Source of the DNA: Minisyncoccota bacterium
Lineage (GTDB): Bacteria > Patescibacteriota > Minisyncoccia > Phycocordibacterales > UBA5272
NCBI GenBank assembly: GCA_041666645.1
Contig: JBAYGN010000001.1
Span: 110,276-174,275, forward strand
Length of the DNA stretch: 64,000 bases
Reading direction: 5' to 3'
In this document: one piece after another, positions 4,902-56,573 of the stretch
How the letters are laid out: every line of letters starts with the position of its first letter
Numbering within the stretch: position 1 is the stretch's first letter
Position numbers and translations under genes: made by a program
The notes under the pieces: generated by a model
The model's database searches: none
What the model saw: only the letters and a program-made list of their open reading frames with translations
Told to the model about the DNA's origin: nothing

Positions 4902-7900
4902 TTATGCCTTTTTACCGCGAAGACCGGTGCCGGCAGGAATAAGACGTCCAATAATAACATTCTCCTTAAGTCCACGTAGTTCATCCATTTGTCCACGAGT
5001 AGACGCTGTAATGAGCACACGAGTAGTGTTTTGGAATGAAGCACTTGAAAGCCATGAGTCAGTAGACAACGCCACATCTGTAATACCAAGTACCAAACTG
5101 CGTCCCTTTGCCTCTGTCCCACCTTCTTCTTTCACACGGTAATTTTCTGCGCGGAAAGTAGAAACTTCAACAACATCACTTTGAGTAAAGTATGAGTCGC
5201 CTGGGTTTGTAATTTTTACACGACCAAACATTTGCTTGATTATAACTTCCACGTGCTTACGTGAGATAGAAGCTCCTTGTAGTTCATAAACTTTGTTTAT
5301 TTCACTAACGATGTATTCCGCAGCGACTTCTTTGCTTGCGTAAGTGAACAACTCTTCGATATCACATGAACCATCCGTAAGCATTTGACCTTTCTTTATT
5401 TGATCACCAACTTTTACAATTGACTGTCGACGGAACGGTACTGTGTATTCAATTTGCTTTCCACTCTTGTTTCCTTTGGCTCCATCGTCATCTGCCAAAA
5501 CAAGAATAATTTTCTCCTTTCCTTCATCACGCATACCAATAACTTCACCTGATTCGTGTGCAATGATAGCAGGATTCTTTGGAGTACGTCTTTCGAAGAT
5601 TTCTTCAACACGAGGAAGACCTTGTGTGATGTCGACTCCAGACACACCTCCAGCGTGGAATGTACGCATAGTAAGCTGTGTTCCTGGTTCACCGATAGCT
5701 TGAGCAGCAACGATACCAACTGCTTCACCTAAGTCCACTTTCTTGTTACGCCCCATATCGAGTCCATAACACTTCTGACAAAGACCATGTAATGACTGAC
5801 ATGCTAGTGGTGAAAATACTGACACTTCTTCTACTCCAGTATTTTCTATTGTAATAGCATCATCTTTTGAAACAAGGTGATTCTTTTTGAAAACAACAGC
5901 ACCATCTACAACAACATCCTCCGCAAGGACTCTTCCGCGAATGTTCTTTGAAATTGGAACTTCAATTCCGAGAGCGTTTTCTTTGCGAACAATTTTACTT
6001 TCTTTTGTTCCACAATCAATTTCGGTAATGATAGCATCCTGTGCCACATCCACTAGACGACGTGTAAGATATCCAGCTTGAGCAGTCTTAAGAGCCGTAT
6101 CTGAGTTACCTTTACGTGCACCGTAAGTTGTAATGAAGTACTCAAGTGGTGTTAGACCTTCCTTGTATGATGAGATAACCGGGAAGTCGATGTTGCGTCC
6201 TGAGTTGTTCACAATAATACCCTTCATACCTGCCATCTGAATAACCTGAGCAATAGAACCTCTGGCACCTGAAGTAATCAAGTCGTACACTGAGCCATTC
6301 TTTTCGATTGAGTCTGGCATAAGCTTTTCAATCTTTAAACGAACACCTTGCCATACTTCAATAGTTTTTTCATAACGCTCTTCTGCTGAAAGGAGACCTT
6401 CCTCATAATCAGCCTCTACACGAGCAGCACTATCCCATCCTTCTTGAACAAGAGTAGGTTTTTCCTTAGGAACCTTAACGGCGTCAATACTCCATGTTGT
6501 ACCGGAGATTGTTGCATATTTGTAACCGAAGGCTTTTATCTTATCGATAACAGCTGGAGCTTTATCAAGACCGTAAGTAAGGATAACTTCATCAACAATA
6601 GCGTTCATTTTCTTTGCAGTTACTTCGTCGTTCATGTAAGCAAAGTCATTTGGGAATACTGAGTTAAATAGTAGGCGTCCAATCGTTGTTTCAAACCTCT
6701 TTCCTTCAAACTTAGAATATTTTTCTTTGTCTGATGGCATAACCCAAATCTTGGCGCGGAATGATACGATACCAAAATCGTAAGCAGTAATAGCTTCATT
6801 AGGTGAGGCAAAGTATTTTCCTTCACCTATTTCTCCTTCAATAACTTTTGTCATCCAGTAGGCTCCAAGAACCATATCCATACGTGGGTTTACAATAGAA
6901 TCTCCAGAACCAGGTTTGAGCAAGTTACGGTTCGCAGCCATGAGTGTGCGAGCTTCTTCTTGAGCAGCAACTGAAAGTGGCAAGTGAACAGCCATCTGGT
7001 CACCGTCGAAGTCGGCGTTAAAGGCCTGACACACTAGAGGGTGAAGCTGAATAGCATTACCTTCAATTAGCTTAGGGTTGAAAGCCTGAATACCAAGTCT
7101 GTGAAGTGTAGGCGCGCGGTTAAGCAACACATACTTTCCTTCAATAACTTCTTCGAGGATTGCCCACACTTCTGGAATACTGTCTTCTATTAATTTATTC
7201 GCACCACGAATGTTAAATGCGAGTTCACGTTCAAGAATTTTTGAAATAATAAATGGTTTGAAAAGTTCAAGAGCCATGTGCTTTGGAAGACCACATTCAT
7301 TTAATGAAAGTGAAGGACCAACCACAATAACAGAACGAGCTGAGTAGTCCACACGCTTACCTAGAAGGTTTCCACGTAGAAGACCTTGTTTACCTTTTAG
7401 GTTATCAGAAAGTGACTTTAGTTGACGCTTCTGTGACTGACTCATAACAGCATCTTGTCCGTGACGAGCTGAGTTATCGATGAGCGCATCAACAGCTTCT
7501 TGAAGAATACGCTTCTCGTTACGCAAAATAACATCTGGAGCACCGATTTCCATCAACTTCTTCAAACGATTGTTACGGTTGATTACACGACGGTATAGGT
7601 CGTTCACATCTGAAGCAGCATAACGCCCACCTTCAAGTGCAACCATAGGACGAATTCCTGGTGGTATGACTGGAATAACAGTCATGAACATCCATTCTGG
7701 GCGAATTCCTGCATTTTGGAATGCACGAATAAGAGAAAGACGCTTTTCTGCTTTCTCACGCTCTAGAGCTCCACACTTTTCAAGTTGCTTAACGATTTGC
7801 CCTTCAATTTCTTTTAGGTCCATCTTCTTGAAGATTTCGTAAAGAGCATCTGCTCCAATACCGGCCTCAAAACATGTTCCATACTTCATCGCGTAACGGT

Positions 7901-18103: not shown

Positions 18104-18177
18104 GCAGTCGTAGCTCAGCTGGTTAGAGCACTGCCCTGTCACGGCAGGGGTCGTGGGTTCAAATCCCATCGACTGCG
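18104..18177 (+). tRNA. tRNA-Asp (GUC)
   Basis: Manual cloverleaf: acceptor GCAGTCG/CGACTGC, D arm GCTC/GAGC, anticodon arm CTGCC-CTGTCAC-GGCAG, T arm GTGGG-TTCAAAT-CCCAT. CCA is not encoded. Confidence 0.9.
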
Positions 18178-18178
18178 C

Positions 18179-18225
18179 AAAACTAAAAATACCCTCAACT
18201 TTCTAGTTGAGGGTATTTTTAGTTT
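18179..18225 (+). terminator. Long hairpin terminator immediately 3' of tRNA-Asp
   Basis: AAACTAAAAATACCCTCAAC tttc TAGTTGAGGGTATTTTTAGTTT. Confidence 0.7.
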
Positions 18226-18240
18226 CTGCATCAGAGAGAA

Positions 18241-18335
18241 GAAAGTGACCTGCGTCACTTTCATTGGGATTTGAATACGAGGCTACAAAACTTTATCGAC
18301 GAGCTTGCGAGGAGAAGTTTTGTAGCCAAATCCCA
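18241..18335 (+). repeat. tRNA-linked structured module, copy A (most divergent copy)
   Basis: Hairpin GAAAGTGAC-CTGC-GTCACTTTC. Then TGGGATTTGAATAC, then a long hairpin GGCTACAAAACTT...AAGTTTTGTAGCC, then CAAATCCCA. That last segment repeats the T-loop/T-stem 3' part of tRNA-Asp (18160-18168). Confidence 0.7.
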
Positions 18336-18393
18336 GTGCTTCAATGTTCATGGTACACTATAAAAATTATTTTCAATTTTATATTTAACCCGC

Positions 18394-19975: not shown

Positions 19976-20129
19976 ATCTGATTCTCCTAAAAATGAACTA
20001 CGAACAAAAAGAAGGTGAATTTTTAATTAAAAAATCTGTCTTTCCCATTCTGAAGCAAAACATCTTACTTTATTCACAGACACAGAAACACAAAAAGATA
20101 CACCTAAGATATAGTTTTTTGTATTTCTG

Positions 20130-20203
20130 TGTCGGCGGGTGGGAACGATCCACCGACCTTGGGCTTATGAGTCCCACGCTCTAACCAACTGAGCTACGCC
20201 GAC
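20130..20203 (-). tRNA. tRNA with CAU anticodon (elongator Met or lysidine-dependent Ile2), non-canonical T-loop
   Basis: Acceptor GTCGGCG/CGCCGAC with G1-C72 paired, so not an initiator. Anticodon loop CTCATAA. T arm GGTGG-ATCGTTC-CCACC has A54 and U58 in place of U54 and A58. Confidence 0.8.
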
Positions 20204-20308: not shown

Positions 20309-20379
20309 AGCGGGGTAGAGTAGAGGTAACTCACGAGGCTCATAACCTCGGGACACAGGTTCGATTCCTGTCCCCGCAA
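20309..20379 (+). tRNA. Initiator-type tRNA-fMet (CAU)
   Basis: 3' strand CCCCGCA plus A73, as in bacterial initiators, with a 1:72 A-A mismatch. Anticodon arm CGAGG-CTCATAA-CCTCG. T arm ACAGG-TTCGATT-CCTGT. CCA is not encoded. Confidence 0.8.
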
Positions 20380-20441
20380 CAAGAATAATAAAAATAGATA
20401 CTGTAATCGGTGTCTATTTTTATTATTCTTGTTGCGATAGT

Positions 20442-20557
20442 AATACATGACCTGCGTCATGTATTCTAGGAATCGAATACGGGGTCGCGAATCTGCTTCG
20501 AGCGAAGCGAGGCAGATTTGTGACCGATTCCTGTCCCCGCAACAAGAATAATAAAAA
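20442..20557 (+). repeat. tRNA-linked structured module, copy B, ending in a 33-nt exact repeat of the tRNA-fMet 3' end
   Basis: Hairpin AATACATGAC-CTGC-GTCATGTATT. Then AGGAATCGAATAC, then a 14-bp hairpin GGTCGCGAATCTGC...GCAGATTTGTGACC with two G-T wobbles. The direct repeat CGATTCCTGTCCCCGCAACAAGAATAATAAAAA occurs at 20362-20394 and 20525-20557. Confidence 0.85.
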
Positions 20558-20667
20558 GGGCGATGCTTACAGCATCGCCCTTTTTATTATTCATTATTCT
20601 TAAAACTTTTATATATGCCACCATTTACTAATTTGCTTTAGATATGACGCGGTAGATGAAGCAAATT

Positions 20668-41945: not shown

Positions 41946-41964
41946 GTGCGGAGGATGTGAGATT
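41942..41964 (-). repeat. Direct repeat (attR-like): copy of the tRNA-Ser 3' end
   Basis: ACTTGTGCGGAGGATGTGAGATT matches 58543-58564 (ACTTGGCGGAGGATGTGAGATT) with 17 nt exact plus 5 nt after a 1-nt indel. Confidence 0.85.
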
Positions 41965-42045
41965 AGGTCACAAAACTACCTCGCTTTGCTCGAAGTAGTT
42001 TCGCGACCCCTATTCGAATCTCCGCAAGTGACGCAGGTCACTTGC
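41965..42045 (-). repeat. tRNA-linked structured module, copy D (island-internal, next to the repeat)
   Basis: The minus strand reads GCAAGTGAC-CTGC-GTCACTTGC, then GGAGATTCGAATAG, then the hairpin GGGTCGCGAAACTAC...GTAGTTTTGTGACC, then TAATCTC. It is preceded by a long A/T hairpin at 42064-42106. Confidence 0.8.
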
Positions 42046-42267
42046 TTTCTTTACCTTCGCGGTCAAAAGAAAAATCTAGAGTATGAAACTCTAGCTTTTT
42101 CTTTTGATGCGGGCATCCTCGAGTTAGGACCTTTTGAGGACAAGACCTGTAAGGTTATTTATATCATTTTAATTTTTCAAAATCAACGCTCCTCGAGCGT
42201 CTAGAAAAAGTGACAAAAGTGACACAGGATAGACTAGTAAAAGTTACAGTTAATTGTAACTATTTTC

Positions 42268-43032
42268 TTACTTTTTCCTATTTAATTCCTCTTGTGCCCT
42301 TTTTGGATTTGTAGCAAAAACAGTTACACCACGCTTATCTGGATACTCCTCAATTATCATTATTCCACCTTCAAGATCAAATTTTTCACATATAGGTTTT
42401 AGTGCTTCAAGTGTATATGCAAGAAGATCTTTGAATACAAGTTTTCTTAAGTAGTCGTTATATGGTCTTTCCATAGCTAAATCTCTAGTACCCCTGAACT
42501 TTGAGTGCAAATAGGTTGATAAGTGGCTGTAACTGTCGTACACGGAACTTGAACCAATTTCATTAGATTCCTCTCTAATACTTTTACCGTCCCAATGATT
42601 CTTATTATTACCAGACGGAGAATAATCTTCAGTCATCTTTTTAAGATACTCTAGTAACTCTTTTCCTTTTGGAGGAATATCACTCATCTTATCTGCACGC
42701 TTCAAATATTCTTTTGTTGAAAAATATTTATAGTTTGAAGCTCTTTTCTCAGTGTCGTCTTTGTATATGTATCTAAGATTAATAGTAGTCTCTAAAATAC
42801 TACGAGCCATAATAATACAGCTCCTAAAATGACCCTCTTTATAGAGAATCCTCATAGATTCATACATATCAATAATTTCTTTAAGCAGGAAATCGGTAAC
42901 ATCAAAAAGATTATCTGATACTGTGTCTCCTTTTTCTTGAAATTGTTCAAGGTGTGTTTTTAAGAAATGATTGATTCGTTCAAGATCTTTTACTTGTTCA
43001 GGTTCTTTTCTCCAAAAGTTGAATATATTCAT
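42268..43032 (-). CDS. Hypothetical helical protein (last gene of the six-gene operon)
   Basis: 254 aa. Its start overlaps the upstream stop by 4 nt. No catalytic motif recognised. Confidence 0.6.
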   Translation of the reverse strand: MNIFNFWRKEPEQVKDLERINHFLKTHLEQFQEKGDTVSDNLFDVTDFLLKEIIDMYESMRILYKEGHFRSCIIMARSILETTINLRYIYKDDTEKRASNYKYFSTKEYLKRADKMSDIPPKGKELLEYLKKMTEDYSPSGNNKNHWDGKSIREESNEIGSSSVYDSYSHLSTYLHSKFRGTRDLAMERPYNDYLRKLVFKDLLAYTLEALKPICEKFDLEGGIMIIEEYPDKRGVTVFATNPKRAQEELNRKK

Positions 43033-44288
43033 TTCTTCACATTATCATCTAAAGGGACTACTTTCAAATAATCCATAATCTTGTAACCTTTTAGATGTTC
43101 GTGTGGATCAACAAATTTATACCAAGGTTCCATATGATGATAAGTCTCACCGTCTTTTATCTCACTTAAAGAACGAGACTGCACAAGTTTCTTCGGTGGC
43201 AAGAAATCCTTATTATCTTTTATAAGAAAAAGTTGAGTATGAACACCTTTACCATAACAACTAACATTACGAGCCTTTAAAACACCATCTTTAACCCATT
43301 TTCGTATTGTAGGACTTTTGAGATTAAAACTGCTTTCAATATCATATTTTGAATACCAGCTATCTTTAAGTTTTGCCAAAGATGCAGGTATTTCTTTTTT
43401 ATCAATTGCATTCTGACAGATAAGACATTTGATACCCCATCTGTCATACCAATTATCACCTTTATCATGTGTACTATGTCCACATATAAAACATGTATAA
43501 CCAACGCCATCTAAATGAAAACCATTAGGATTTTCTTTTAATTTTTCTTCTCTTGCTTTTTCTTTTTCTTTCCATTCTTCTGAGAATTTTGCCATTTGTT
43601 GCAAACCCCACTTTTCTTCCTGATACTTTTTGCCAGCCTCATGAGTTAAGCAAAAACGGTCACGGTCTATAGCAAAGTTTTCATCTATATCCTCAGCTTC
43701 TTTTTTAGTCCATATATAATCTTCAGTTTTAGAATATTTACACTTTGAACAAGTAAAAGTTGTAACAAGTTTTTCACTGGTATTTTTCTCACTGCGTTTA
43801 AGTAGACTATTACAATGTGGGCAAAGGTCTGGCTTTACTCTCCACTCTTCACCATCAGAGAAGAAAGCTCTTCTAGGAAGACATTGATTAGGACAATCAT
43901 ACATAAATAAAACACGATCTTCTTTGTTTAACTCAGACCACAACTCTTTAAAAGTTGGTTTCAAACGATTACGACAAGTAAGACACCTCATATCTTCAGG
44001 AGCTTGTGCAGATTCATACAACTCATCTCTTTTTCTATCAGAATCCATCCACTCTTGGATAGTCTTTTCTTTATTGAGATACATTTCGCCAGTTTCAAAA
44101 TGAAGGAATAGATCTGCAACAACTTTTCTCATATGTTCTGCCTGTTTCTTACTAACACCCTTAACTTTTGGAAGGCTTGTATCTTTTTCATTGTAAGACT
44201 TTTCAAGTCTACGACAACGCCCAACAGTCATCCGATCATAACGGTCTATGTATTCTTGTCGATCTTTAAGATAGGGTGACTTTTCCAT
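43029..44288 (-). CDS. Hypothetical multi-zinc-ribbon protein with a C-terminal HTH-like segment
   Basis: 419 aa. At least five CxxC pairs: CLTCRN, CPNQC, CPHCNS, CSKCKYS, CFICGH...CLICQN. The C-terminus SPTIRKWVKDGVLKARN resembles an excisionase/MerR-type HTH. Confidence 0.6.
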   Translation of the reverse strand: MEKSPYLKDRQEYIDRYDRMTVGRCRRLEKSYNEKDTSLPKVKGVSKKQAEHMRKVVADLFLHFETGEMYLNKEKTIQEWMDSDRKRDELYESAQAPEDMRCLTCRNRLKPTFKELWSELNKEDRVLFMYDCPNQCLPRRAFFSDGEEWRVKPDLCPHCNSLLKRSEKNTSEKLVTTFTCSKCKYSKTEDYIWTKKEAEDIDENFAIDRDRFCLTHEAGKKYQEEKWGLQQMAKFSEEWKEKEKAREEKLKENPNGFHLDGVGYTCFICGHSTHDKGDNWYDRWGIKCLICQNAIDKKEIPASLAKLKDSWYSKYDIESSFNLKSPTIRKWVKDGVLKARNVSCYGKGVHTQLFLIKDNKDFLPPKKLVQSRSLSEIKDGETYHHMEPWYKFVDPHEHLKGYKIMDYLKVVPLDDNVKK

Positions 44289-44312
44289 ACCTAATTTTGT
44301 AATTATACCACT

Positions 44313-45224
44313 TTAACCAAAGCTTACATTTGGGTCTTTTATTGCATTAATTATCTCCATTCTATTTTTAAAATCTGAAATATCTGAATGACAATCTTCG
44401 ATTTCATCAATTATAGAAGATGAAAAGTCGGTTCTCTTTTTAAGCAGGAACTGTAGGTACTCAGAATCAAGAGCTGGGTCAAGAGGTAACGGTTCAATAT
44501 CTTTGATAACTTTCATTAAAGTAGATTCTTTTGTTTTCATTAAAAATGCGAGAACTTCTATCATTGCAGTTTCTTCATAATCAAAAAGGATGTCATCGCC
44601 ACCACAGAGTATTTTTGCAGCCTTAGAGCTACTGCTAGAAATCTCATCTGTATACAAGTTTTTTGCGTGTGCTGATTCTTTTATTATGAGATAAATATCT
44701 TTAGTAATTTTCTTTACGGTTTTTCCAATAAACTTTTTAACTCTTAATGAATTATCCACACCAAACATGTCGTCTGTAATATCGATTTGAAGATACTTAT
44801 TTAAAAACAAATGTAATGCTTTTTTATCTTTCGATATATTTGTTACTGATTGTAAACTGAAACGATCATATCTATGAGTTTTATAGAAAATTGAAAGAAG
44901 ATTTAATAGAGCAATATGAGAATCACCCAAGTTGATATTAGTACTCTTTTTTATTCTGTTAAGTAAATCAAGATGATTGTGTGTGATTAATGATTTTTCA
45001 AAGATATTAATATCAGTTTTGTCATTAAACTCCAAAAGGACAATAGCGACTTTAAACAATCGCTCAAGTCCAACTGAAAGATTATAAAGAACTGGGAACA
45101 CTTCTGTTTCCATACTTAAGGTTTCCATTTCATGTAGATTCCTTAATCCGTCGTAAATAAAATTACAAGCAATTTCTTGTTCCTCACCAAGTTTAAAGTT
45201 TTGCCAGAATTGTGTAGGATTCAT
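44313..45224 (-). CDS. Hypothetical protein
   Basis: 303 aa. Its start overlaps the upstream stop by 4 nt. No motif recognised with confidence. Confidence 0.6.
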   Translation of the reverse strand: MNPTQFWQNFKLGEEQEIACNFIYDGLRNLHEMETLSMETEVFPVLYNLSVGLERLFKVAIVLLEFNDKTDINIFEKSLITHNHLDLLNRIKKSTNINLGDSHIALLNLLSIFYKTHRYDRFSLQSVTNISKDKKALHLFLNKYLQIDITDDMFGVDNSLRVKKFIGKTVKKITKDIYLIIKESAHAKNLYTDEISSSSSKAAKILCGGDDILFDYEETAMIEVLAFLMKTKESTLMKVIKDIEPLPLDPALDSEYLQFLLKKRTDFSSSIIDEIEDCHSDISDFKNRMEIINAIKDPNVSFG

Positions 45225-45748
45225 ATTGTGTGATCTTTAACTTTTGATAACATTTCATCAGAAGTTTTAGCAATTAACTCCTCTGTAATTCCATATTTTT
45301 TTAGCACTGGGTCCAGAGTTATTGAAAGTTGTTCATCTGCTTCGTTTATTATACTAATAGCATCTTCAAGTTCCTTAATCATACTTTTACGACCGTCAGA
45401 AAATAAAAATTCTTTTGCACGCTCCCTAAAATAGTTATGAGCTAACCAGTTTCGAAGTGTTAATGCTTTTGCTAATTTATCAGAAAGATTTAGTGGTACA
45501 TTGGTTACTTTTTCAAGATCCTTAATCATCCGACCTAGAGTATGTTCAAAGTGTCTTGAAGTAAAAGAATCAACACTATCTTCCCAATCTTTTGAATGTG
45601 ACACTGGCATTTTTGAAGGGATGAGATCGAGATAAATAAGAGCATTAACTAAACCGTGCTCAAGACATTGGGCACTGTAGATAGCAAGTCCAAAATATGC
45701 ATAAACTTCTTTTACTTCTTCATTTTTTGATGATGTATCAATAATCAT
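45221..45748 (-). CDS. Small helical protein with a HEPN-like Rx4H motif
   Basis: 175 aa. LRNWLAHNYF fits the RNxxxH HEPN signature. Its start overlaps the helicase stop by 4 nt. Confidence 0.6.
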   Translation of the reverse strand: MIIDTSSKNEEVKEVYAYFGLAIYSAQCLEHGLVNALIYLDLIPSKMPVSHSKDWEDSVDSFTSRHFEHTLGRMIKDLEKVTNVPLNLSDKLAKALTLRNWLAHNYFRERAKEFLFSDGRKSMIKELEDAISIINEADEQLSITLDPVLKKYGITEELIAKTSDEMLSKVKDHTI

Positions 45749-47580
45749 ATATTTACTATTTCAAATCCTTCAAAACAGGTTTTGTCTTGCATTGCATCAA
45801 ATATGGTTTTTTGTATCGCGAAAGCAAAAAGATCTTGAGGTCGTGAAGACGCAACATAAATTAATTTTTTATATTTTTTAGTTAACTTATTCTGATTATT
45901 TTGCATTCCATGTTCAATATCATATTTACCGTATGGTGATTTGGTACTTGATATAAATAAAGTTGCATTATGGGTTTGACCTTTAACACTATGAATAGTG
46001 CCTATCCTAACATTAACCCCTTGAGAACTTTTATAGGAATTTGTCCTCTCTTTTATTTCAGTAGAAGTAATTTTCTTCATATTAAATTTAATAAGATCTT
46101 CTCCTAAAATAATATTCAATTTTTCCTGTAATTCAGGAAAGTTTAATACTCCTCCATTAGTTAGGATTTCATTACTAATATCTAATACCATCTTTTTAAA
46201 ATCACTATCTTCATTAAAAAGTTTTTCATGTAATTCAGTCCATGTTCCTTCATTCTTGAAATGCTTATAAAGAAGACGGTATAAAATATTGGATACATGA
46301 TGAGTGCCATTTTTTCTGACTAAATCAGGTGTAAGTAAATTTATGTAATCAATATCATTGGAAAATTTTAAAGTTTTATTTTTCTTATTACTTACCGTTG
46401 ATTCCCTGGAATAGGAGTCAGGGAAACTCTCAATTAATTGATCATGCTCATAGGCAATAGCAAAATAGCCTTTCTGGTTGTCATGTGGTATCTGTTTAGA
46501 AATTAAAATTTCTGAGAATTTTTCAAGGAGATCTTCATTACAACCATTTGAGTAAGTAATTAGAATCTTTTCAGAAGTATTAGTAGATCCTCTTATTGTA
46601 TTTTCTCCAAAGGTGTTTAGACAAAAACCACTCACAAAGGTAATTAGATTTGAACCACAGCGAATTGATTGACCCAAAAATAAAGTAGGTTCAGGGGCAC
46701 TCCAAGCATCTTCAGATATAGACTGATTTATGTCCCCAATTTGTTGGAAACATACTTGTGTATTTTTCCCGAACAAATCATCTAACAATTTAAGTTGAAT
46801 TTCAGAACAATCTTGTGATTCATCAAGCAATACAAAATTAAACCTTTTACTAATAATCTTACTGAACACAGGGTGCTGTTTTAAATACTCCAATGCGTAT
46901 ATAAAACTTTCAATAAATAAAAAGTTACCCTTCTGATGTTGTTTATCTATTAAAGTTTTTATATGGGTATTTGATTGAGCCAATGGAAACGCTATAGTCT
47001 TTAAACTATTGTATTCTGTAAGTTTCTTTGAATCTACGACTTTATCTTGATAGAAACATAGCCTATGAAACTCATTCCAAAATCTAGCAACGGCATCATC
47101 TCCTCCGTGTCTTAATTGTGATAGCTTATTCGATATTCTTGTCTTTAAAGAAGTATCCCCGTCATTGTCATAGTCAAGATATCTACTTTCATCTTGAAAT
47201 CTTATCTGCATATTTACACTTGCTAGATAAGGTATAAAAAGAAATTTATTTACAAATTCTTGTATAGTGCCTACAAAATTTGGATACTCCATTATTTCAG
47301 GATAATGATTTGCTACTCTACTTTTGATTTCATCAATAGCAATATTAGTATGGGAAATAACACAAATACCTTTTCCTGTTTCCCAAACTCTTTTTTGAGC
47401 AAGGATATGTAATTTACCAACCAAAGTACTAGTTTTCCCTGACCCTGCATACGATTGTAAAGAACAAGAATCTAAACATTTTAAAAAAGCTTTTTGTTCG
47501 TCTGAAAAAGACCCTTGTCCAAGGAAAATATCTTGTTCGGCTTTATTTATCTCTTCATCTGTGACAATAAAATTACACAT
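45745..47580 (-). CDS. UvrD/PcrA/Rep-like superfamily 1 helicase (GajB-like)
   Basis: 611 aa. Walker A YAGSGKTSTLV, Walker B VLLDESQD, and the C-terminal motifs IGTIHSVKGQTHNATLF and IYVASSRPQDL. Confidence 0.85.
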   Translation of the reverse strand: MCNFIVTDEEINKAEQDIFLGQGSFSDEQKAFLKCLDSCSLQSYAGSGKTSTLVGKLHILAQKRVWETGKGICVISHTNIAIDEIKSRVANHYPEIMEYPNFVGTIQEFVNKFLFIPYLASVNMQIRFQDESRYLDYDNDGDTSLKTRISNKLSQLRHGGDDAVARFWNEFHRLCFYQDKVVDSKKLTEYNSLKTIAFPLAQSNTHIKTLIDKQHQKGNFLFIESFIYALEYLKQHPVFSKIISKRFNFVLLDESQDCSEIQLKLLDDLFGKNTQVCFQQIGDINQSISEDAWSAPEPTLFLGQSIRCGSNLITFVSGFCLNTFGENTIRGSTNTSEKILITYSNGCNEDLLEKFSEILISKQIPHDNQKGYFAIAYEHDQLIESFPDSYSRESTVSNKKNKTLKFSNDIDYINLLTPDLVRKNGTHHVSNILYRLLYKHFKNEGTWTELHEKLFNEDSDFKKMVLDISNEILTNGGVLNFPELQEKLNIILGEDLIKFNMKKITSTEIKERTNSYKSSQGVNVRIGTIHSVKGQTHNATLFISSTKSPYGKYDIEHGMQNNQNKLTKKYKKLIYVASSRPQDLFAFAIQKTIFDAMQDKTCFEGFEIVNI

Positions 47581-47586
47581 ACAATT

Positions 47587-49329
47587 TTATTCGTCATTCT
47601 TAGGTGGTAAAACAAAATTAATTGAATCAACAATATACGGTAAATTATCAGTGATTTCTGTTTTTATAATTTTTACTTTTTTATCTTTTAAATCAATTAA
47701 CTCAGAAATTTTTTGTGCAACTTCTTGAGCAAGAACGGCTTTCTTTTTCTTCATTCTTGAATACAAGAAGCTTACAGGCATTTCATTTGTAAGCAGTGCT
47801 TTCTTTCGCAATATTTTTGAATTATAAGCATCAAGATATAATTGTTTAAGTTCTTTTGTTTTACTTAAGATTAAGGTTTCAAAGGTAGTGCCTTGGTCTT
47901 TTGATATCTGTAACGCAGAATTTAATTGCTCGCCAACAAAACAACCAATATTATTATTTGTATCAATTATTAAGCTCTTATATTTTTCCATCGATGAACT
48001 ATTCCTCTTGTCGGCATCCGTCATAACAGCAATAGGAATTTTGTTGTAAGGTGCGGTTACACGTTTAAAAATATTTACAAAATGTTCAAACCCAAGACCA
48101 TTGGTTGAGACAACAGATAATCCATAATCAGTAAGATCATAACCTAAAACTTTCGCAAACTCAGGTAATAATAATTGTTCTGTCGTACCCTCAACTAAAA
48201 TTACACCTTGTGCAAAAAATAAGTTTGCTTTAGTTGCACTTAAAAATCTTCCTAAATAAGAGTAGTTATCATCAGTTAATTTAGTAGACCCTTTGGAAAG
48301 GGAGTAGAAATCTGCATTATTAATAGTACAAAGCCGTTCAATATCTACGACAGAAGCAAGATTAGGGCTATGGGTAGTTAATATCATTTGAATACCCTTT
48401 TTTGATTCATCTTGTAGAGCACGGATAATTTTGAGTTGTCTCTGTGGATGTAGATGGGCTTCAATCTCTTCCACTAAAAGCATATTAGGATTTTTATGTG
48501 TATTTAAGTGCAACAGTTCTGCCGCAATAAAAATCATATTAAGAGTACCCAATCCTGGCTTATTCAAATTCTCATAATACAAAGAGATTCTCTCTAATGC
48601 TTTTAAGTGATCAATTTTTTCCGTTGGTCCAAAATTTATATCTTTTTTACTGTAATGTGATTGTTCGTCAAATAAATCAAGAAGTCTCTTAACCTCTTCA
48701 GCAATTTCTCCTCCGTTGCCACCAGATGAAAAGAAGTTTTTTGATGAGCGTTCAAAATCTTCCAAGAAACTCTTAAGTTCAAATTCATTATTTTTTATGT
48801 CCTTATGCTCTTTCAATATTTTAGAAATTCTAGATCCTTGTTTTGCTCGTAATTCATTTTCTGCATCTCTTAGCGGTCTTAAATAAACAACTTTAAAATT
48901 TTCACGACAGTGTGGGTCCATGTCTATCGCAACATCCTTTGTTGGTCCAACTTTAAACGATGGGAATTTAATACCTTTCTCATCAGCTTTTGCTGTATAC
49001 CAAATTTTCAACTCAGGAACATCACCTTCACCAAAAGATAAGTATTCTGCAAAGAGACTTGTATCCTCTACAATATCTTCTTCTGAAACACAATCATCGA
49101 AAGCAAAAACAAGGTCAATATTTATTTCTTTTGTAGTGTCTTTGAAATCATCAATTTGTAATTTTACATAGTCATCAACAACTTGTTTCAATACTAATCT
49201 TAAAGCATCTATGAGAGCTGTTTTCCCAGAATCGTTAGCACCAACAATAAGATTAAGCCCACAATTAAAAGTACACACTGCGTCATCAATCTTTCTAAAG
49301 TTTTTAATATGAGCATTTTTGAGATACAT
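47587..49329 (-). CDS. OLD-family ATP-dependent endonuclease, ABC-type ATPase plus TOPRIM (GajA-like)
   Basis: 580 aa. Walker A VGANDSGKTALIDAL, LLVEEIEAHLHPQ, and TOPRIM motifs VILVEGTTEQLLLPEF...VMTDADK. A TATAAT box lies 6 nt upstream of the ATG (49336-49341). Confidence 0.85.
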   Translation of the reverse strand: MYLKNAHIKNFRKIDDAVCTFNCGLNLIVGANDSGKTALIDALRLVLKQVVDDYVKLQIDDFKDTTKEINIDLVFAFDDCVSEEDIVEDTSLFAEYLSFGEGDVPELKIWYTAKADEKGIKFPSFKVGPTKDVAIDMDPHCRENFKVVYLRPLRDAENELRAKQGSRISKILKEHKDIKNNEFELKSFLEDFERSSKNFFSSGGNGGEIAEEVKRLLDLFDEQSHYSKKDINFGPTEKIDHLKALERISLYYENLNKPGLGTLNMIFIAAELLHLNTHKNPNMLLVEEIEAHLHPQRQLKIIRALQDESKKGIQMILTTHSPNLASVVDIERLCTINNADFYSLSKGSTKLTDDNYSYLGRFLSATKANLFFAQGVILVEGTTEQLLLPEFAKVLGYDLTDYGLSVVSTNGLGFEHFVNIFKRVTAPYNKIPIAVMTDADKRNSSSMEKYKSLIIDTNNNIGCFVGEQLNSALQISKDQGTTFETLILSKTKELKQLYLDAYNSKILRKKALLTNEMPVSFLYSRMKKKKAVLAQEVAQKISELIDLKDKKVKIIKTEITDNLPYIVDSINFVLPPKNDE

Positions 49330-49450
49330 AAGACAATTATAACATTTTTGACTTGATTTTTATATATTATGTTGTATTTAAAATTTTGTTATAAATAAAG
49401 CTATGTTAAACTCAAAATAGTACATTCATAAATCACAATCTTGCTTTTTA

Positions 49451-49650
49451 CTGGTCCCACACGGAGGGGCTGTCTGCGGTTTTACCGATGTAAGTTAAAA
49501 GCCACGGGACGTTTATTACCAGCACGAAAGTGTGTTAAGGTACGATCTTTTTTAACGGAAGCAATAATCACAACCATTATAGGTTGTTGTTATTGCGTCT
49601 GTAAAATTCATAAACGCAAAAAACACCAACCTAACAGGTTGGTGTTTTTT
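49451..49650 (+). ncRNA. Candidate structured RNA or leader between the divergent island operons
   Basis: A GC-rich core closed by CTGGT/ACCAG and GTCCC/GGGAC (49451-49522). Then a 15-bp hairpin GCAATAATCACAACC/GGTTGTTGTTATTGC. Then the terminator AAAAAACACCAACC taac GGTTGGTGTTTTTT, which ends 40 nt before the ParB-methylase ATG. Confidence 0.35.
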
Positions 49651-49690
49651 GCTTGTATAAATTAATAATAATTAACAAAAAAATAAACTT

Positions 49691-50965
49691 ATGCAAAAAC
49701 CCAATTGGCGAGCAGAAAAAAGACTACTGAAAGATCTCAAAACATGGCTTGCAAATCCACGCAAAATTACAAAAGATAATTTTGCAAAATTAATAAAAAG
49801 AATAACAGAACGTGGTTTCCATGATGTTATCAAAATTGATACTGATGGGACTGTACTCTCAGGAAATCAAAGGAGAAAAGCATTAATAGAGCTAGGTATA
49901 AAAGAAGTTATTGTTTTAATTCCCGACCGCAAACTCACAGAAGATGAACGTAACAAAATCGCACTCGAAAGTAATATTAATGATGGTGAGTGGGATTTCG
50001 AAGCTTTGAAGTTATTTGAACTAGATACACTTTCGGAAGTTGGTTTTAATGAAATAGATGTTAAAAACATTTGGGGTGAAAATCTAGAAGCTAAAAATGA
50101 CGAATTCAATGAAACTGAAGAACTTAAAAAAATTAAGAACCCTAAAACTAAGAAAGGAGATCTCATAATTTTCGGTAAACATAAGTTACTATGTGCCAGT
50201 TCAACAGATAGTAACGCAGTGAAGGCATTGTTTGGAAATGATAAAGCATCTGTTATCTATAGCGACCCACCTTTTAACATTGGGCTCGACTATAACAAAG
50301 GAGTAGGTTTAAAAGCCAACTATGGTGGTAATGTCGATGATAGTAAGTCAGCAGAAGATTATAAAGAATTTATAAGAAAGACATTAGTAAACGCTCTAGC
50401 AGTATCTTATAAAGATGTTCACTGCTTCTATTGGTGTGATGAGGCTTGGGTGTGGGTATTTCAGACTCTGTACAACGAACTTGGTATTAAAAATAGAAGG
50501 CTTAACATTTGGTTAAAAAATAATTCATCACCTTGTCCTAATGTAGCTTTCAATAAAGCAATTGAAGTGTGTTGCTATGGAACTTTAGGAAGTCCACATA
50601 TTTCTAACTCGTTAAAAAATCTCAATGAGATTATGAACAAGGAGTTAACAACTGGCAATGAATTATTTGATGATGTGACAAATGTACTTGCCGTTAAACG
50701 ACTTCCATCTAATCAATATGAGCATCCGACAAGTAAGCCACCAAGTCTTCATGAAAAACCAATCAAGCGTTGTAGTCAGGTTGGAGATATAATTTTTGAC
50801 TCTTTCTCTGGGTCTTCTAGCACAATGATCTGTGCAGAACAATTAAGCAGAAGGGTGTACTCACTAGAGATTTCGGAAGTCTTTTGTGATTTAGCTATCC
50901 GTCGTTGGGAGAAGTTAACAGGTAAGAAAGTAAAGGTAATTAAAAACTTCTATGAAGAAAACTAA
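49691..50965 (+). CDS. ParB-like nuclease domain fused to an N6-adenine/N4-cytosine DNA methyltransferase
   Basis: 424 aa. N-terminal ParB-type motif VLSGNQRRKAL. SDPPFNIG (motif IV) precedes FDSFSGSSST (motif I), which is a beta-class motif order. Confidence 0.8.
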   Translation: MQKPNWRAEKRLLKDLKTWLANPRKITKDNFAKLIKRITERGFHDVIKIDTDGTVLSGNQRRKALIELGIKEVIVLIPDRKLTEDERNKIALESNINDGEWDFEALKLFELDTLSEVGFNEIDVKNIWGENLEAKNDEFNETEELKKIKNPKTKKGDLIIFGKHKLLCASSTDSNAVKALFGNDKASVIYSDPPFNIGLDYNKGVGLKANYGGNVDDSKSAEDYKEFIRKTLVNALAVSYKDVHCFYWCDEAWVWVFQTLYNELGIKNRRLNIWLKNNSSPCPNVAFNKAIEVCCYGTLGSPHISNSLKNLNEIMNKELTTGNELFDDVTNVLAVKRLPSNQYEHPTSKPPSLHEKPIKRCSQVGDIIFDSFSGSSSTMICAEQLSRRVYSLEISEVFCDLAIRRWEKLTGKKVKVIKNFYEEN

Positions 50966-51353
50966 ACTCCAAAACCAATTCTTTATTGAATTGGAAAAAG
51001 TCCCCATCATTCAAGTTGCTTGTGAAAAAACTGGTATATCTCGTAATAGCGTATACCGTTGGCGTAAGGAAGACAAAGTATTCTGTAAGAATATGGATGA
51101 GTCAATTTCAAATGGTGTTGCACTCGTAAATGATATGAGCGAATCACAGTTACTTAGCCTTATTAAAGAAAAGAACTATTCGGCTATTTCTTTTTGGCTT
51201 CGACATAGAAATGACAATTACAAAGACAGAATAGAAGTAACTACTAAAGAAGAAAAAGGAGAACTTACGAAAGATCAACAAAAAGTTATAAAGCATGCTC
51301 TTAAGCTTGCTTCTCTCACAAAGCAGAAGTCTATTAAAAATATCAACAGATAA
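50952..51353 (+). CDS. Putative terminase small subunit / HTH DNA-binding protein
   Basis: 133 aa. VACEKTGISRNSVYRWRKED is an HTH. It lies directly upstream of the large terminase and overlaps the methylase gene by 14 nt. Confidence 0.55.
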   Translation: MKKTKLQNQFFIELEKVPIIQVACEKTGISRNSVYRWRKEDKVFCKNMDESISNGVALVNDMSESQLLSLIKEKNYSAISFWLRHRNDNYKDRIEVTTKEEKGELTKDQQKVIKHALKLASLTKQKSIKNINR

Positions 51354-51358
51354 GTTAT

Positions 51359-52807
51359 ATGAAAAACAAACATATCTTTGATGTTTTAAGTAGAAATATC
51401 ATCAACAAAATGATGAAAGATAAAGCTGTTAGGGTTGCAATTACTACAGAAAGCTTTTTGTATTTCTTTCACTTTTACTATGCACATTATGTGGGATACA
51501 AGACAGCAGATTTTCAGAAAGAAATTTTTCATTTACTTGAAAAGAGTAATACTGAAAATCTTTACATTGTTGCCTTTCGTGGGTCAGGTAAATCAACTCT
51601 TGTTACTACTGCTTACCCTATATGGGCAATATTAGGTAAACAAAAAAAGAAATTCTGTGTTATCTTTTGCCAAACAAGAAATCAAGCTAAGCAACACATG
51701 ATGAACATTAAAAAAGAGCTCGAAAATGATAATCTTCTTAAAAGTGATCTCGGTCCTTTCCAAGAAGAATCAGATGAGTGGGGGTCGTATTCTTTAGTGT
51801 TTAAAAAACATGGGGCAAGAATTACTGTTGCTTCAACTGAGCAAAGTATCCGTGGTATTCGTCACAATGAACACAGGCCAGACTTAATTATTTGTGACGA
51901 TGTGGAAGATGTTCAATCTGCTAAAACACGAGACGGTCGTGATAAAACATATAACTGGCTTAGAGGTGAGGTTATTCCTTGTGGTGATATAAATACTCGC
52001 TTAATTATTATAGGCAACTTACTTCATGAAGATTCGTTACTGATGAGAATTCAAGATGAGGTGAATAATAATAAAACAAGAGGAGTGTTTAAGAAGTATC
52101 CACTATTAAACGATAATGGTGAATGCTTGTGGACTGGTAAATATCCCGATGAAGAAGCAATCGAGGATGAAAGACTAAAAGTTGCAAGTGAAGTTTCTTG
52201 GTATAGAGAGTATTTACTTAAGATAATCTCTACCGACGGACAAATCGTAAATCCTGAATGGATACAATTTTATGATAAATTTCCAGCAACTGGTCTACAT
52301 AGTATTTGTATAGGTATTGATCTTGCGGTAAGCGAAAGAGATTCCGCAGACTGTACAGCCATGTTAGTTGGGTATGTATATGGAACAGGTAAAAATATGA
52401 AAGTTTATCTAAAAGAGAATCCAATTAATGAAAGAATCTCATTTCCTGTACAAGCAGAATATGTAAAAGCATTAGTAGCTACTGAGAAATTAATACATCA
52501 TAGAGTTAAACTGTTTGTGGAAGATGTTGGATATCAAAAAGCATTTATACAACTCTTTGAAAGTAAGAACTACAATATAGAGGGTGTTCCAACAGGAAGA
52601 AACGATAAAGCTACACGATTAAGAATGACTACTCCTTTTATTAAAGAAGGAAGAGTCCTTTTTCCTAAAAATGGCTGTGAGGAATTGATTCAACAATTAC
52701 TAGGATTTGGAAAAGAAAAACATGACGATCTTGCGGATTCTTTTTCAATCTTAGTATTAAAAGTAATTGAAACTAATCCTAGTGGTGGAGGAATATTATT
52801 TGGGTAA
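51359..52807 (+). CDS. Phage terminase large subunit
   Basis: 482 aa. Walker A FRGSGKSTL and Walker B LIICDDVED. The C-terminal RNase-H-like nuclease has acidic residues at GIDLAVSERDSAD and HDDLADSF. Confidence 0.8.
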   Translation: MKNKHIFDVLSRNIINKMMKDKAVRVAITTESFLYFFHFYYAHYVGYKTADFQKEIFHLLEKSNTENLYIVAFRGSGKSTLVTTAYPIWAILGKQKKKFCVIFCQTRNQAKQHMMNIKKELENDNLLKSDLGPFQEESDEWGSYSLVFKKHGARITVASTEQSIRGIRHNEHRPDLIICDDVEDVQSAKTRDGRDKTYNWLRGEVIPCGDINTRLIIIGNLLHEDSLLMRIQDEVNNNKTRGVFKKYPLLNDNGECLWTGKYPDEEAIEDERLKVASEVSWYREYLLKIISTDGQIVNPEWIQFYDKFPATGLHSICIGIDLAVSERDSADCTAMLVGYVYGTGKNMKVYLKENPINERISFPVQAEYVKALVATEKLIHHRVKLFVEDVGYQKAFIQLFESKNYNIEGVPTGRNDKATRLRMTTPFIKEGRVLFPKNGCEELIQQLLGFGKEKHDDLADSFSILVLKVIETNPSGGGILFG

Positions 52808-53551
52808 CCTTCCTCCACTGTTTAAACAATCATTTATTGAAGCAAAAGAAGTATATTTAAGAGTTGCGTTATAATACCTTGTCCCTTTAGCATGACAGAT
52901 TCCTGTACTACTCTTTTTAACTTCAGTATTGCTAGTACTAACTGTTGTATTGACTATGCTGTTTTCTTTTGGAGCAAGTATGACACTTGTTACCACAGTA
53001 GTAGCAACAGGAACAACATTTGAAGTTGTAGTTTTTGGTTGTACGACTGTTTTAGTGGTAACACCCAATACTTCTATTTGATAGTAAGATAGCCAATCAG
53101 ATGATATTTGTCTTTGTGCTTCTACAATATCCATCTTTCCACCACACACTTGTTTATGTAGATAGTTTTCAAACTTATCCTTTATACGAGCATTATCTTT
53201 GATTGTGTAAGATTCAGGATAAAGATTAGATATGTCATTACTTCCACCAAGCTCTAAACTAATGATATGGTCTACTTCGTAGTTACTTCTTTGAGAGTAA
53301 GGAATACCGTATTCTTTAAATACTTTCTTCTTAGTTGTTTCAGTTACATTTCTAACAGTTTTTGTATAACCTGTTTTACAGATTACTTTTATATCTGTTG
53401 TTAATACTGCCCCAGGAGAACAAGCAGAATCTGGCAGTGTTTGATTACCTACACAGTTACTCGTTTTAGTTTGAATCCCATAAGTAGCAAAAACTACATT
53501 ACTTGAAATTAGAGCTAACGAAACGAAGAATATAGATATCTTTTTGTTCAT
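52796..53551 (-). CDS. Secreted HNH-motif nuclease-like protein
   Basis: 251 aa. Signal-peptide-like N-terminus and YEVDHIISLELGGSNDISNLYPE (an HNH-type motif). Confidence 0.6.
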   Translation of the reverse strand: MNKKISIFFVSLALISSNVVFATYGIQTKTSNCVGNQTLPDSACSPGAVLTTDIKVICKTGYTKTVRNVTETTKKKVFKEYGIPYSQRSNYEVDHIISLELGGSNDISNLYPESYTIKDNARIKDKFENYLHKQVCGGKMDIVEAQRQISSDWLSYYQIEVLGVTTKTVVQPKTTTSNVVPVATTVVTSVILAPKENSIVNTTVSTSNTEVKKSSTGICHAKGTRYYNATLKYTSFASINDCLNSGGRLPK

Positions 53552-53563
53552 AGTATTTACATA

Positions 53564-54040
53564 CTACCTTATAACCATCTCGTTTGGAACCCAACCTGCT
53601 TGTCCTATATATTTACCTTCATTGATTCTAACTTCACTAGAAAAATAACTAGCATCAATCACTTTAACTGCTGTACTTTTATCTACCAATAAAATCTTTC
53701 CATCTAATGACATTTGAGCAAGTCCAGTTGTATCATTAGCTGCAACAAGCTTCATCATTTCATCGTAGTAACTTTTATTTATAGCAACTAAAACTGGATT
53801 ATTACCTGAAATAGTTAAGTGAGCATTCTCTCCAATTTTTACAGATTCAACTACAGGCTGTGATGTGCTTGAACCATCTGAAAATGATGACCGTATAATA
53901 CCTATTACAAAAAGAATTAAGATACTCTGATAGATTCTTTTCTTGATTACTGATGGTTGTTTTTTACCACAATGTTTACATACTGTGGCATCGTTTAAAA
54001 TTTCTTCTTTACAGAAGTTACACTTTTTATTTGTATTCAT
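53564..54040 (-). CDS. Zinc-ribbon membrane protein, hypothetical
   Basis: 158 aa. CNFCKEE...CKHCGKK zinc ribbon followed by one TM. Confidence 0.5.
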   Translation of the reverse strand: MNTNKKCNFCKEEILNDATVCKHCGKKQPSVIKKRIYQSILILFVIGIIRSSFSDGSSTSQPVVESVKIGENAHLTISGNNPVLVAINKSYYDEMMKLVAANDTTGLAQMSLDGKILLVDKSTAVKVIDASYFSSEVRINEGKYIGQAGWVPNEMVIR

Positions 54041-54046
54041 AAATTA

Positions 54047-54190
54047 TCTGATAGGACTTAATAATCTCTCGTGGAAAGCAAAAATCCCACCACGTGAGTA
54101 AGGTCTTGCGACCTTCATATCTGTTTCCAGATATGGCCTATCAGAGCAAAGCCCACATGATGGGGTTTTTACTCTGATAGGACTTTTTTC
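54047..54190 (+). promoter_or_regulatory. Candidate structured leader or small RNA with mutually exclusive helices upstream of the recombinase gene
   Basis: CTGATAGG (54048-54055) can pair with CCTATCAG (54137-54144), enclosing three hairpins. Alternatively CCTATCAGAG pairs with CTCTGATAGG (54172-54181), which is followed by TTTTTT. A possible promoter TTACAC-16 nt-TAAATT lies just upstream. Confidence 0.4.
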
Positions 54191-54342
54191 ACCATATCAA
54201 TATTGCTATTGGGTTAGGTTACTATTGAATTGTTCCTCTTAATACTCTTTGTATTAATCTATTGATTATATCGCAAATAATTGCTTTTGCTAAGGCATTT
54301 TTATCAACAAATAAATCTCTCACAATGTCGCCTTTTTTAATT

Positions 54343-54359
54343 CTGCATAGACTATGCAG
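54343..54359. promoter_or_regulatory. Perfect 8+8 palindrome upstream of the recombinase gene (possible operator)
   Basis: CTGCATAG a CTATGCAG, about 20 nt upstream of the TATAAT that abuts the annotated ATG. Confidence 0.35.
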
Positions 54360-54386
54360 GGATTATGGTTCTGTCATTAATATAAT

Positions 54387-56472: not shown

Positions 56473-56573
56473 GTAATCGCATTATAGAACAAAAACTTGA
56501 TCTTCTCCACCTTTTGTGTTTTAATACTTAAAGCTTGATCGAAACAATCCAATGTGATAGAATTATCTTTGAT

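Follow-up and report, generated by a model that had tools for sequence, protein, structure and literature searches.

The stretch analyzed here, 64,000 nucleotides of a Minisyncoccota bacterium (contig JBAYGN010000001.1, positions 110,276 to 174,275; hereafter the window), carries five copies of a structured module associated with tRNA genes, which together with its counterparts in other genomes of the candidate phyla radiation (CPR)/Patescibacteria appears to represent an undescribed family of miniature mobile elements. Each unit measures about 110–170 nt, contains no gene, and combines two hairpins under selection on one strand with an antisense copy and a sense copy of a tRNA 3′ segment. In our reading, to which we assign a probability of roughly one half, the modules are gene-less integrative mini-elements whose folded sense strand is recognized by a recombinase that we infer to act in trans.

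ARAGORN finds six tRNAs in the window, four of which are followed on the same strand by a module: tRNA-Asp (copy A), tRNA-Met (copy B), tRNA-Glu (copy C), and tRNA-Ser(GCT) (copy E). The fifth module, copy D, has no tRNA alongside, its cognate tRNA-Ser(ACT) being located 16.5 kb away. The initial annotation of this DNA had placed five copies at these positions, and a covariance model that was built on 76 copies and run over the window with filters switched off recovers every one of them: There are exactly five strong matches in the 64 kb, at 20429–20539 (plus strand, 96.8 bits), 41952–42059 (minus, 95.0 bits), 60785–60894 (plus, 93.1 bits), 18227–18341 (plus, 92.5 bits), and 58689–58805 (minus, 71.6 bits), whereas the strand opposite the same five places scores at most 18.6 bits. 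Since the window copies are within the training set, the informative outcome is the lack of further copies and the asymmetry between the strands. Moreover, the motif TCGAATN{1,2}GGGTCGCG occurs four times in the window against an expectation of 0.00, and the short and long hairpins of the window copies (H1 and H2) fold with z-scores of −4.4 to −7.7. A separate weak match of the model at 49588–49661 on the minus strand (14.8 bits, E about 0.05), in the gap between an OLD nuclease and a methylase gene, is probably a mere hairpin.

Starting from the tRNA, the unit comprises a hairpin resembling a terminator, in many cases the acceptor 3′ strand in antisense (a refinement of the earlier description, which lacked this segment 5′ of H1), an A, H1, G(T), the T-stem 3′ strand and T-loop (tRNA positions 65–54), likewise in antisense, TA(C)G, H2, and finally a repeat of the tRNA from C56/G57 onward. 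The antisense copy covers tRNA positions 54–73 and is split by H1 at the junction of acceptor stem and T-stem. H1 is, as originally described, a hairpin of 9–10 bp with a changing stem and a constant loop, CTGC being invariant across the 76 copies. H2 has the consensus GGGGTCGCGR...YGTGACC and is separated from the antisense by a conserved bulge, GAATA(C)GG, of 7–8 nt on one side only, the first bases of which (GAA) are complementary to the T-loop TTC 5′ of the junction, a triplet that never varies. The direct repeat begins exactly at the 3′ foot of H2. Two elements of the initial annotation hold only in part: The segment complementary to the T region is indeed antisense, but the TCGAA assigned to it varies; being antisense to T-loop positions 54–58, it changes to TTGAA where the T-loop reads TTCAAAT (copy A, L070, and L115; L-numbered names denote individual loci or contigs compared with the window). 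Likewise, the copies do repeat a tRNA 3′ end, but for copy D this is not the end of an adjacent tRNA.

Copy B exemplifies this architecture. Its host tRNA-Met(CAT) occupies 20309–20380 on the plus strand (ARAGORN, repeat search), and the first direct repeat, 20362–20394, starts at C56 of the T-loop. In the DNA fold, a 26-bp hairpin (20376–20439) unites a 5′ arm consisting of the tRNA 3′ end and its trailer with a 3′ arm (20410–20435) that is antisense to trailer and acceptor. H1 follows with a 10-bp stem and the CTGC loop (20442–20465). The antisense of the T-stem 3′ strand and T-loop (TAGGAATCGAA) lies within 20467–20482, and its last bases form, together with TACGG, the 8-nt bulge GAATACGG. 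H2 extends from GGTCGCGAA to TTTGTGACC (20483–20525) and contains two G·T wobbles according to fold and alignment. The second direct repeat, 20525–20557, corresponds to the displaced original tRNA 3′ end plus trailer, with a second terminator at about 20550–20595. The reported repeat of 33 exactly matching nucleotides is confirmed at 20362 and 20525 with a spacing of 163; the repeats of the other copies are shorter (copies E and D 17 nt each, copy A 9 nt, copy C 6 nt).

The remaining copies can be delineated in the same manner. Copy A follows tRNA-Asp(GTC) at 18104–18178 on the plus strand (ARAGORN, Rfam tRNA model). Its upstream part (18180–18240), assigned from sequence and layout, consists of a terminator-like hairpin (18180–18225) and a degenerate antisense-acceptor segment (18226–18240); H1 with a 9-bp stem and CTGC loop is found by folding at 18241–18262, and the rest (18263–18338) contains the antisense T region ATTGGGATTTGAA, the bulge GAATACGA, H2 (18281–18327), and the repeat CAAATCCCA (18327–18335), which covers the T-loop/T-stem part of the tRNA end only. 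In copy C, within 60746–60886 (plus) behind tRNA-Glu(CTC) at 60673–60745 (ARAGORN), the hairpin (60746–60783), a degenerate antisense-acceptor (60784–60798), H1 (60799–60820), antisense T (60824–60829), bulge (60830–60837), H2 (60838–60880), and the repeat GACTCT (60881–60886) succeed each other. Copy E belongs to tRNA-Ser(GCT) at 58826–58913 on the minus strand (ARAGORN) and lies within 58685–58825: The tRNA 3′ end pairs with the antisense-acceptor AATCTGCGGAGACGG (58807–58793), followed by H1 (58791–58770), antisense T (58769–58760), bulge (58759–58753), H2 (58752–58703), and the repeat ATCCCGCCGTCTCCGCA (58701–58685). The displaced copy D (41948–42123, minus) begins with a decayed relic of a tRNA end (about 42123–42108), a hairpin (42107–42063), and a decayed antisense-acceptor (42062–42046), and continues with H1 (42045–42024), the antisense T GAGATT (42022–42017), bulge (42015–42009), H2 (42008–41966), and the repeat AATCTCACATCCTCCGC (41964–41948). 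This 17-nt repeat is common to copy D and the 3′ end of tRNA-Ser(ACT) at 58546–58635 (minus; ARAGORN), and the sequence of copy D is identical in the independent contig L117.

The fold is under selection. Over the 76 copies, 95.7% of the cells in stem columns are paired, compared with 77.9% in shuffles, none of 500 of which reaches the observed value, and 34–43% when the partner column is slid. Changes on both sides are seen at all nine pairs of H1 (9/9; 97.7% of cells paired), at 5/7 pairs of P3, a stem that joins the antisense T segment to the repeated tRNA end and in which the T-loop bases are paired, and at 6/11 pairs of proximal H2. Distal H2 occurs in about eight discrete variants that are common to several genomes and independent of tRNA identity. 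The two G-T wobbles noticed at fixed positions prove nearly fixed, being G·U in 74/76 and 61/76 copies, and these positions are A·C mismatches on the opposite strand. Strong covariation and the sense-only score of the model (72–97 versus at most 18.6 bits) uphold the original proposal of a selected fold on one strand. The arms of H2 are 44–71 nt apart, and its half-sites, distant from each other in the duplex, become adjacent in the hairpin; a constant site is presented by the folded form only. The initial annotation had set such a fold against an origin as mere att-site debris. While the selected fold stands, the opposition does not: The units display the att-type anatomy of a T-loop insertion, with a replacement 3′ end and the displaced original, so that being structured and being att-derived are not alternatives.

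The antisense segments match their host tRNA. Among 91 tRNA-adjacent copies, the antisense T segment is complementary to the T region of its own tRNA over 11.2 contiguous nt on average, and pairing of 7 nt or more between the antisense-acceptor and its own tRNA end is seen in 54 (control: 9%), whereas pairing with the repeat downstream is limited to 22. The orthologous loci L013 and L056 have different acceptor stems in tRNA-Val, and their antisense-acceptor segments show matching differences. Two mutually exclusive folds are predicted for the antisense: Pairing with the downstream repeat generates a three-way junction capped by H2, whereas in the integrated context pairing with the tRNA's own 3′ third places the terminator at the apex and is more stable (−58 kcal/mol, z = −12; DNA fold of copy B). 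The acceptor end is retained in the downstream repeat of 34/89 tRNA-adjacent copies. Where the repeat is complete, it extends up to the discriminator, and a second terminator comes next as judged by eye, for which our detector, being crude and lacking a background estimate, provides weak support only. For over half of the copies, the repeat behind H2 is limited to the 6–12 nt that form P3 and changes abruptly near the junction of T-stem and acceptor stem. Two further candidate signals were rejected: the loop motifs GTAAYC and GCGAAGC-like, which are equally enriched after module-free tRNAs, and a pseudoknot of the H1 loop CUGC with a GCAG of related types, as type II copies with CCGGAG retain CTGC.

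Scans of genome bins and metagenomes establish that the tRNA-linked family proposed from the window extends to many CPR lineages. A pattern scan over one genome per species identified at least 115 loci; among the matches listed, at least about 70 have the H1 stem and H2 closure, and the stem-bearing ones all stem from low-GC bins (Saccharibacteria, Paceibacterota, Nomurabacteria, Parcubacteria, Gracilibacteria, and unclassified "bacterium"). High-GC matches lack the stems and were dismissed as chance. A stricter pattern yielded an independent set of 49 metagenome loci with the same properties including tRNA linkage. From these relatives, and from a neighboring protein of the window that is 62% identical to a protein in a Paceibacterota bin, we place the organism of the window among the CPR/Patescibacteria. 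Copies clear of locus edges usually lie 14–63 nt 3′ of a same-strand tRNA, and the hosts comprise about 17 identities (Arg, Asn, Asp, Cys, Gln, Glu, Gly, Ile, Leu, Lys, Met, Phe, Pro, Ser, Thr, Trp, and Val); in one case the unit is preceded by a tmRNA-like 3′ end located 3′ of smpB. The preference is pronounced: Of the 168 hairpins in 0.91 Mb of CPR-like loci that combine a CTGC loop with a stem of 8 bp or more, 118 are found in the first 100 nt 3′ of a tRNA on the same strand, a space that makes up 1.2% of the strand-bases, and other tetraloops are almost entirely missing from the same positions. Such a hairpin accompanies 117/206 tRNAs, a proportion that is biased upward because the loci were chosen for containing a module. 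Independently of this, we noticed that several CPR genomes have a tRNA-Ser whose anticodon, ACT, is unusual and which comes immediately after tRNA-Ser(GCT) (window, L071, L073, L022, and L154), with a large serine recombinase gene 0.5–3 kb from it in the window and in L073.

Several features of the units point to turnover. Tandem arrays in L066, L104, and L127 mix different H1 and H2 types, which indicates repeated insertion rather than duplication. Displaced copies, which retain a decayed tRNA-end relic and the hairpin upstream, sit behind islands (window copy D, L055, L077, and L074). Equivalent tRNAs in different genomes carry a full unit, a remnant only, or none, and L078 contains a decaying copy. 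Taken together, arrays of mixed types, displaced copies behind defense islands, and gain and loss at equivalent tRNAs argue for mobility. In addition, the Glu units of three genomes (copy C, L065, and L061) are about 90% identical with both flanks unrelated, the block of homology reaching from the tRNA 5′ end to GTGAC of H2, and H1 is swapped between loci that are otherwise about 95% identical. Independently made assemblies of this organism are interrupted within H2 of module D or just 3′ of the DUF5677 gene (L118, L119, and L117, each at position 1), consistent with the modules being assembly-breaking repeats. The second tRNA-Met of the window (20129–20203, minus) has no module; a terminator is followed by GTGTC... 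(to about 20085), a partial antisense of its own 3′ end. At tRNA-Gly-TCC of L082 and L021, a full antisense-acceptor segment is present and H1 is absent. These antisense segments without H1 may be remnants of lost units. A duplication of another kind is seen in L057 (933–1100), where the tRNA-Asp 5′ end and upstream sequence (GCTACGACCGCGTATATTGTTTTACTTCTACC) are repeated around an insert of about 90 nt, which hints at an insertion of a different type on the 5′ side of the tRNA gene.

The island between tRNA-Ser(ACT) and module D (42046–58545, 16.5 kb) is a defense island. It encodes a DUF5677 protein (42268–43032), a Gabija-like pair of UvrD helicase (45745–47580) and OLD ATPase/TOPRIM protein (47587–49329), an N6/N4 methylase (49691–50965), a large serine recombinase (54387–55712, plus), a MutH-like nuclease (55705–56472), and a C5 methylase (56535–57815), besides an HTH protein, a DEAD helicase, and an HNH protein. 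It also contains a full-length LOOT RNA (Rfam RF03000, 87 bits) at 54100–54220 on the minus strand, about 60 nt upstream of the open reading frame (ORF) 53564–54040 (minus) and divergent from the serine recombinase gene. Upstream of other displaced copies lie Thoeris genes (L055) or a helicase-nuclease and DUF5677 (L077). In L074 (481–3440), a 2.9-kb insert separates tRNA-Leu(CAA) from a module with a perfect 19-nt repeat; with genes for a rolling-circle Rep (Pfam Phage_CRI, 1.5e-07; phrog_702) and an S51 peptidase next to unassigned ORFs, it may be an integrated small replicon. We further observed a sequence of the form AATAACCTTAC.GG.CTTG.CC...GCC.GCA 3′ of DUF5677 genes and just upstream of displaced modules (window about 42150–42108 on the minus strand, L077 about 7030–7090, L157, and L130), which looks like the island's own end with a relic of a tRNA-Gln 3′ part.

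The sequences demonstrate an insertion anatomy, a selected and strand-specific fold, the link to tRNA genes, turnover, and the distribution of the units, whereas a single-stranded DNA state, the crossover point, and the recombinase are inferred. How such units might spread can be outlined as follows. In CPR/Patescibacteria, an incoming element would insert at about C56/G57 in the T-loop of a tRNA or tmRNA gene; in places, units sit at the far side of larger islands. It would bring along a replacement tRNA 3′ end and its own terminator hairpin and leave the displaced original end downstream; because the replacement end is supplied, the tRNA gene would stay intact. On the sense strand, the antisense would pair with the tRNA 3′ segment to form a three-way junction, which would recreate the T-stem/acceptor duplex beside the bulge and the H2 foot, the point from which the direct repeat starts. 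The folded single strand, most plausibly DNA as in CTX-phage attP or integron attC, would serve as substrate of a trans-acting site-specific recombinase, and P3 would constitute the crossover or overlap region that must match the target T-loop. A variant of this scheme, which we regard as rather unlikely, takes the antisense segments flanking H1 for programmable guides, made of RNA or single-stranded DNA, whose base-pairing to the region from T-loop to acceptor directs the trans-acting enzyme, in a logic comparable to IS110 bridge RNAs and to the guide–cleavage-site pairing of IS200/605. If it applied, CPR would possess guide-directed insertion specific for the tRNA T-loop, with a guide of about 20 nt on a gene-less vehicle, and retargeting to another tRNA would need changes of the guide only.

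The window modules belong to a more extensive superfamily, of which they form a branch and in which other core domains occur. Many tRNAs without the module carry relatives that start alike, with an antisense-acceptor, H1 with its CTGC loop, and an antisense T segment; the cores of these relatives are different and in many cases larger, some holding the same GGGGTCGCGAG...CGTGACC hairpin, and none is represented in Rfam. Larger types are found 3′ of tRNA-Leu-TAA (L002), Val-GAC (L115), Arg-GCG (L040 and L056), Pro (L082/L038), and Arg-TCG (L096/L103/L113), and their cores contain GCCGCAG...CGAGG domains, UAGCAA/UAGUAA hexaloops, and long CGAAAAACCGGT hairpins.

Several results weigh against mobile mini-elements. 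With 100–200 nt of extra conserved domains, the larger relatives look more like RNA than like a DNA site. Shortened repeats are not predicted by simple integration, and P3 could be under selection in place; such selection and the loss of the palindromic portion of arrays by deletion, to which L104 points, are the possibilities we see. The persistence of orthologous copies between related genomes (L013/L056) and the presence of units at a majority of tRNAs in the selected, upward-biased loci would fit a host function as well. A pattern search for an empty site of copy B returned nothing, no excised or circular form was found, and look-ups of contigs by exact protein retrieved either the identical allele or contigs that end within the module; around tRNA-Asp, the window is not alignable with L078 and L057. 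The mini-units contain no ORF, and a Pfam scan of 150 ORFs located no more than 2.5 kb from units shows no recombinase enriched among its leading families, the large serine recombinase being found only in the island next to tRNA-Ser(ACT); this is in keeping with non-autonomous elements, although no candidate enzyme emerges from it. Phage and plasmid records gave no module match, and in IMG/VR viral contigs, two scans by pattern and one by Rep protein turned up nothing but chance matches of high GC. A weak tblastn search detected neither IS200 TnpA nor XerD in the sampled loci. An Rfam scan of the window and 18 loci at gathering thresholds returned only tRNAs, LOOT, and one SAM riboswitch and left the modules unmatched, and a permissive scan of copy B returned terminator-driven noise only. 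Self-cleaving ribozymes, group I/II intron fragments, and a BHB intron were rejected: There is no model match, and the junction bases ...GACC|GA do not fit. The absence of Rfam, phage, and plasmid matches, together with our finding no paper that describes such units, agrees with the original statement that no described element has this architecture.

These observations have to be weighed against what the modules could be instead. The main alternative, possible if doubtful, is that they encode a functional tRNA-like non-coding RNA, made by read-through to the second terminator, in which the antisense segment and the repeated tRNA end would build an acceptor/T-stem-like helix bearing H1 and H2, and which would act as processing signal, decoy, or regulator tied to each tRNA. 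The restriction of the selected fold to the tRNA-sense strand would follow naturally, as would the acceptor-like stem that closes full-repeat units and larger related types, the multi-domain relatives with conserved loops, the very high occupancy of tRNA genes in streamlined genomes, the persistence at orthologous loci, the maintenance of P3 where the remaining repeat is lost, and the lack of an internal terminator between H1 and the repeat as judged by eye. However, a strong terminator-like hairpin lies ahead of the module in 84/89 units, there is no space for an own promoter, and the acceptor-like closing stem is impossible in about 60% of the copies and, unlike in a true tRNA mimic, variable in length, while the T-loop is not formed. 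Moreover, the most stable integrated fold pairs the antisense with the tRNA 3′ third, so that a read-through RNA would unfold the tRNA, and tandem, displaced, and decayed copies are hard to square with a dedicated gene.

The same copies bring to mind passive scars, that is, inactive remains of attP arms after deletion of large tRNA-integrating islands bearing an integrase, a serine recombinase, or a Rep. Such an origin would account for an anatomy that fits attL/attR of T-loop-integrating elements, for copies at the far ends of islands (copy D with the serine recombinase 54387–55712, L074 with the rolling-circle Rep), and for decayed copies such as L078; yet we consider it improbable, for scars would retain neither compensated 9-bp stems in 76/76 copies nor fixed G·T wobbles, the mini-unit architecture is uniform with the hairpin abutting the tRNA end, and the islands beside displaced copies appear to have an end of their own, AATAACCTTAC.GG.CTTG.CC, common to copy D, L077, and L157. 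Those islands could alternatively suggest a DNA structure selected by the host, either as landing pad for the exchange of defense islands by homologous recombination after DNA uptake or as insulator of tRNA genes. The content between tRNA and module (the Gabija-like pair, methylases, Thoeris, and helicase-nucleases), the H1 swap between roughly 95%-identical loci, and the assemblies breaking within modules are in line with this idea. We nevertheless hold it to be quite unlikely: Most units are without an island, the antisense design and the strand-specific wobbles are left unexplained, and direct evidence of recombination through modules is missing.

Whichever explanation applies, the units explain assembly breaks at tRNA loci, mark the borders of defense islands, and need to be annotated, lest they pass for tRNA pseudogenes. 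CPR/Patescibacteria genomes are among the smallest and most streamlined, yet the majority of tRNA genes in the sampled loci carry units. If these are mobile, they would constitute a new and very abundant non-autonomous family recognized via a folded strand that copies its own target, and their recombinase would offer a candidate tool for insertion that is compact and site-specific or even guide-directed; if they act as RNA, a class of non-coding RNA linked to tRNAs across the superphylum would be new.

The units can be compared with several known systems. With tRNA-like RNAs, such as the tRNA-like domain of tmRNA and viral tRNA-like structures, they have in common an acceptor/T-stem-like helix, a genuine tRNA 3′ sequence, and large insertions in between. 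They differ in that a 7-bp acceptor stem on a T-arm with T-loop is not found: The T-loop bases are engaged in P3, and the closing stem is variable and mostly absent. The units also lie behind a terminator and match no Rfam family. A second group consists of the IS200/IS605-derived PATEs and the REP/REPIN elements mobilized by RAYT, which are short, gene-less, multi-copy hairpin elements mobilized in trans. Here the resemblance would concern the recognition of a hairpin on one strand and perhaps a segment 5′ of the hairpin foot that is complementary to the cleavage or target site (in the units, GAA versus the invariant TTC). This likeness to a hairpin-plus-guide logic is weaker than that to attC and CTX attP. 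The two hairpins of the units are unrelated to each other (H1 with 9 bp and CTGC loop; H2 with GGTCGCG...TGTGACC), a long target copy is carried, and no Y1-HUH transposase was matched in the sampled loci by the weak tblastn search.

In their insertion anatomy, the units resemble integrators with T-loop crossover in tRNA and tmRNA genes, of which P4-type tyrosine-integrase islands and the serine-recombinase ssrA islands of Dehalococcoides (PMC3146451) are examples. In both cases the insertion affects the 3′ part of the gene, a replacement 3′ end is supplied, the displaced end remains as a direct repeat of about 17–33 nt, repeated insertion leads to tandem arrays, and tmRNA genes are used too; in the window, the flanking direct repeat runs from C56/G57 to the 3′ end in copies B (33 nt), E (17 nt), and D (17 nt). 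In contrast, the units measure only about 110–170 nt, are gene-less without an integrase nearby, and hold an antisense target copy and hairpins under structural selection. Neither of the latter two features is known from classical attP arms. Folded single-strand recombination sites are represented by integron attC and CTX-phage attP, which are strand-specific and contain unpaired bases. The units differ from them in targeting the tRNA T-loop rather than attI or dif and in forming a three-way junction with H1 as an extra hairpin, and neither an R-box GTTRRRY nor a dif-like motif is present in the conserved parts of the module alignment, nor do the data link the units to IntI or XerCD. The parallels are the following: Structure is kept while sequence varies, as evidenced by the compensatory changes in the units, the fold is specific for one strand, the folded stem imitates a site in duplex form, the length of the apical part is variable, and the crossover in the units would likewise be located at the base of the fold.

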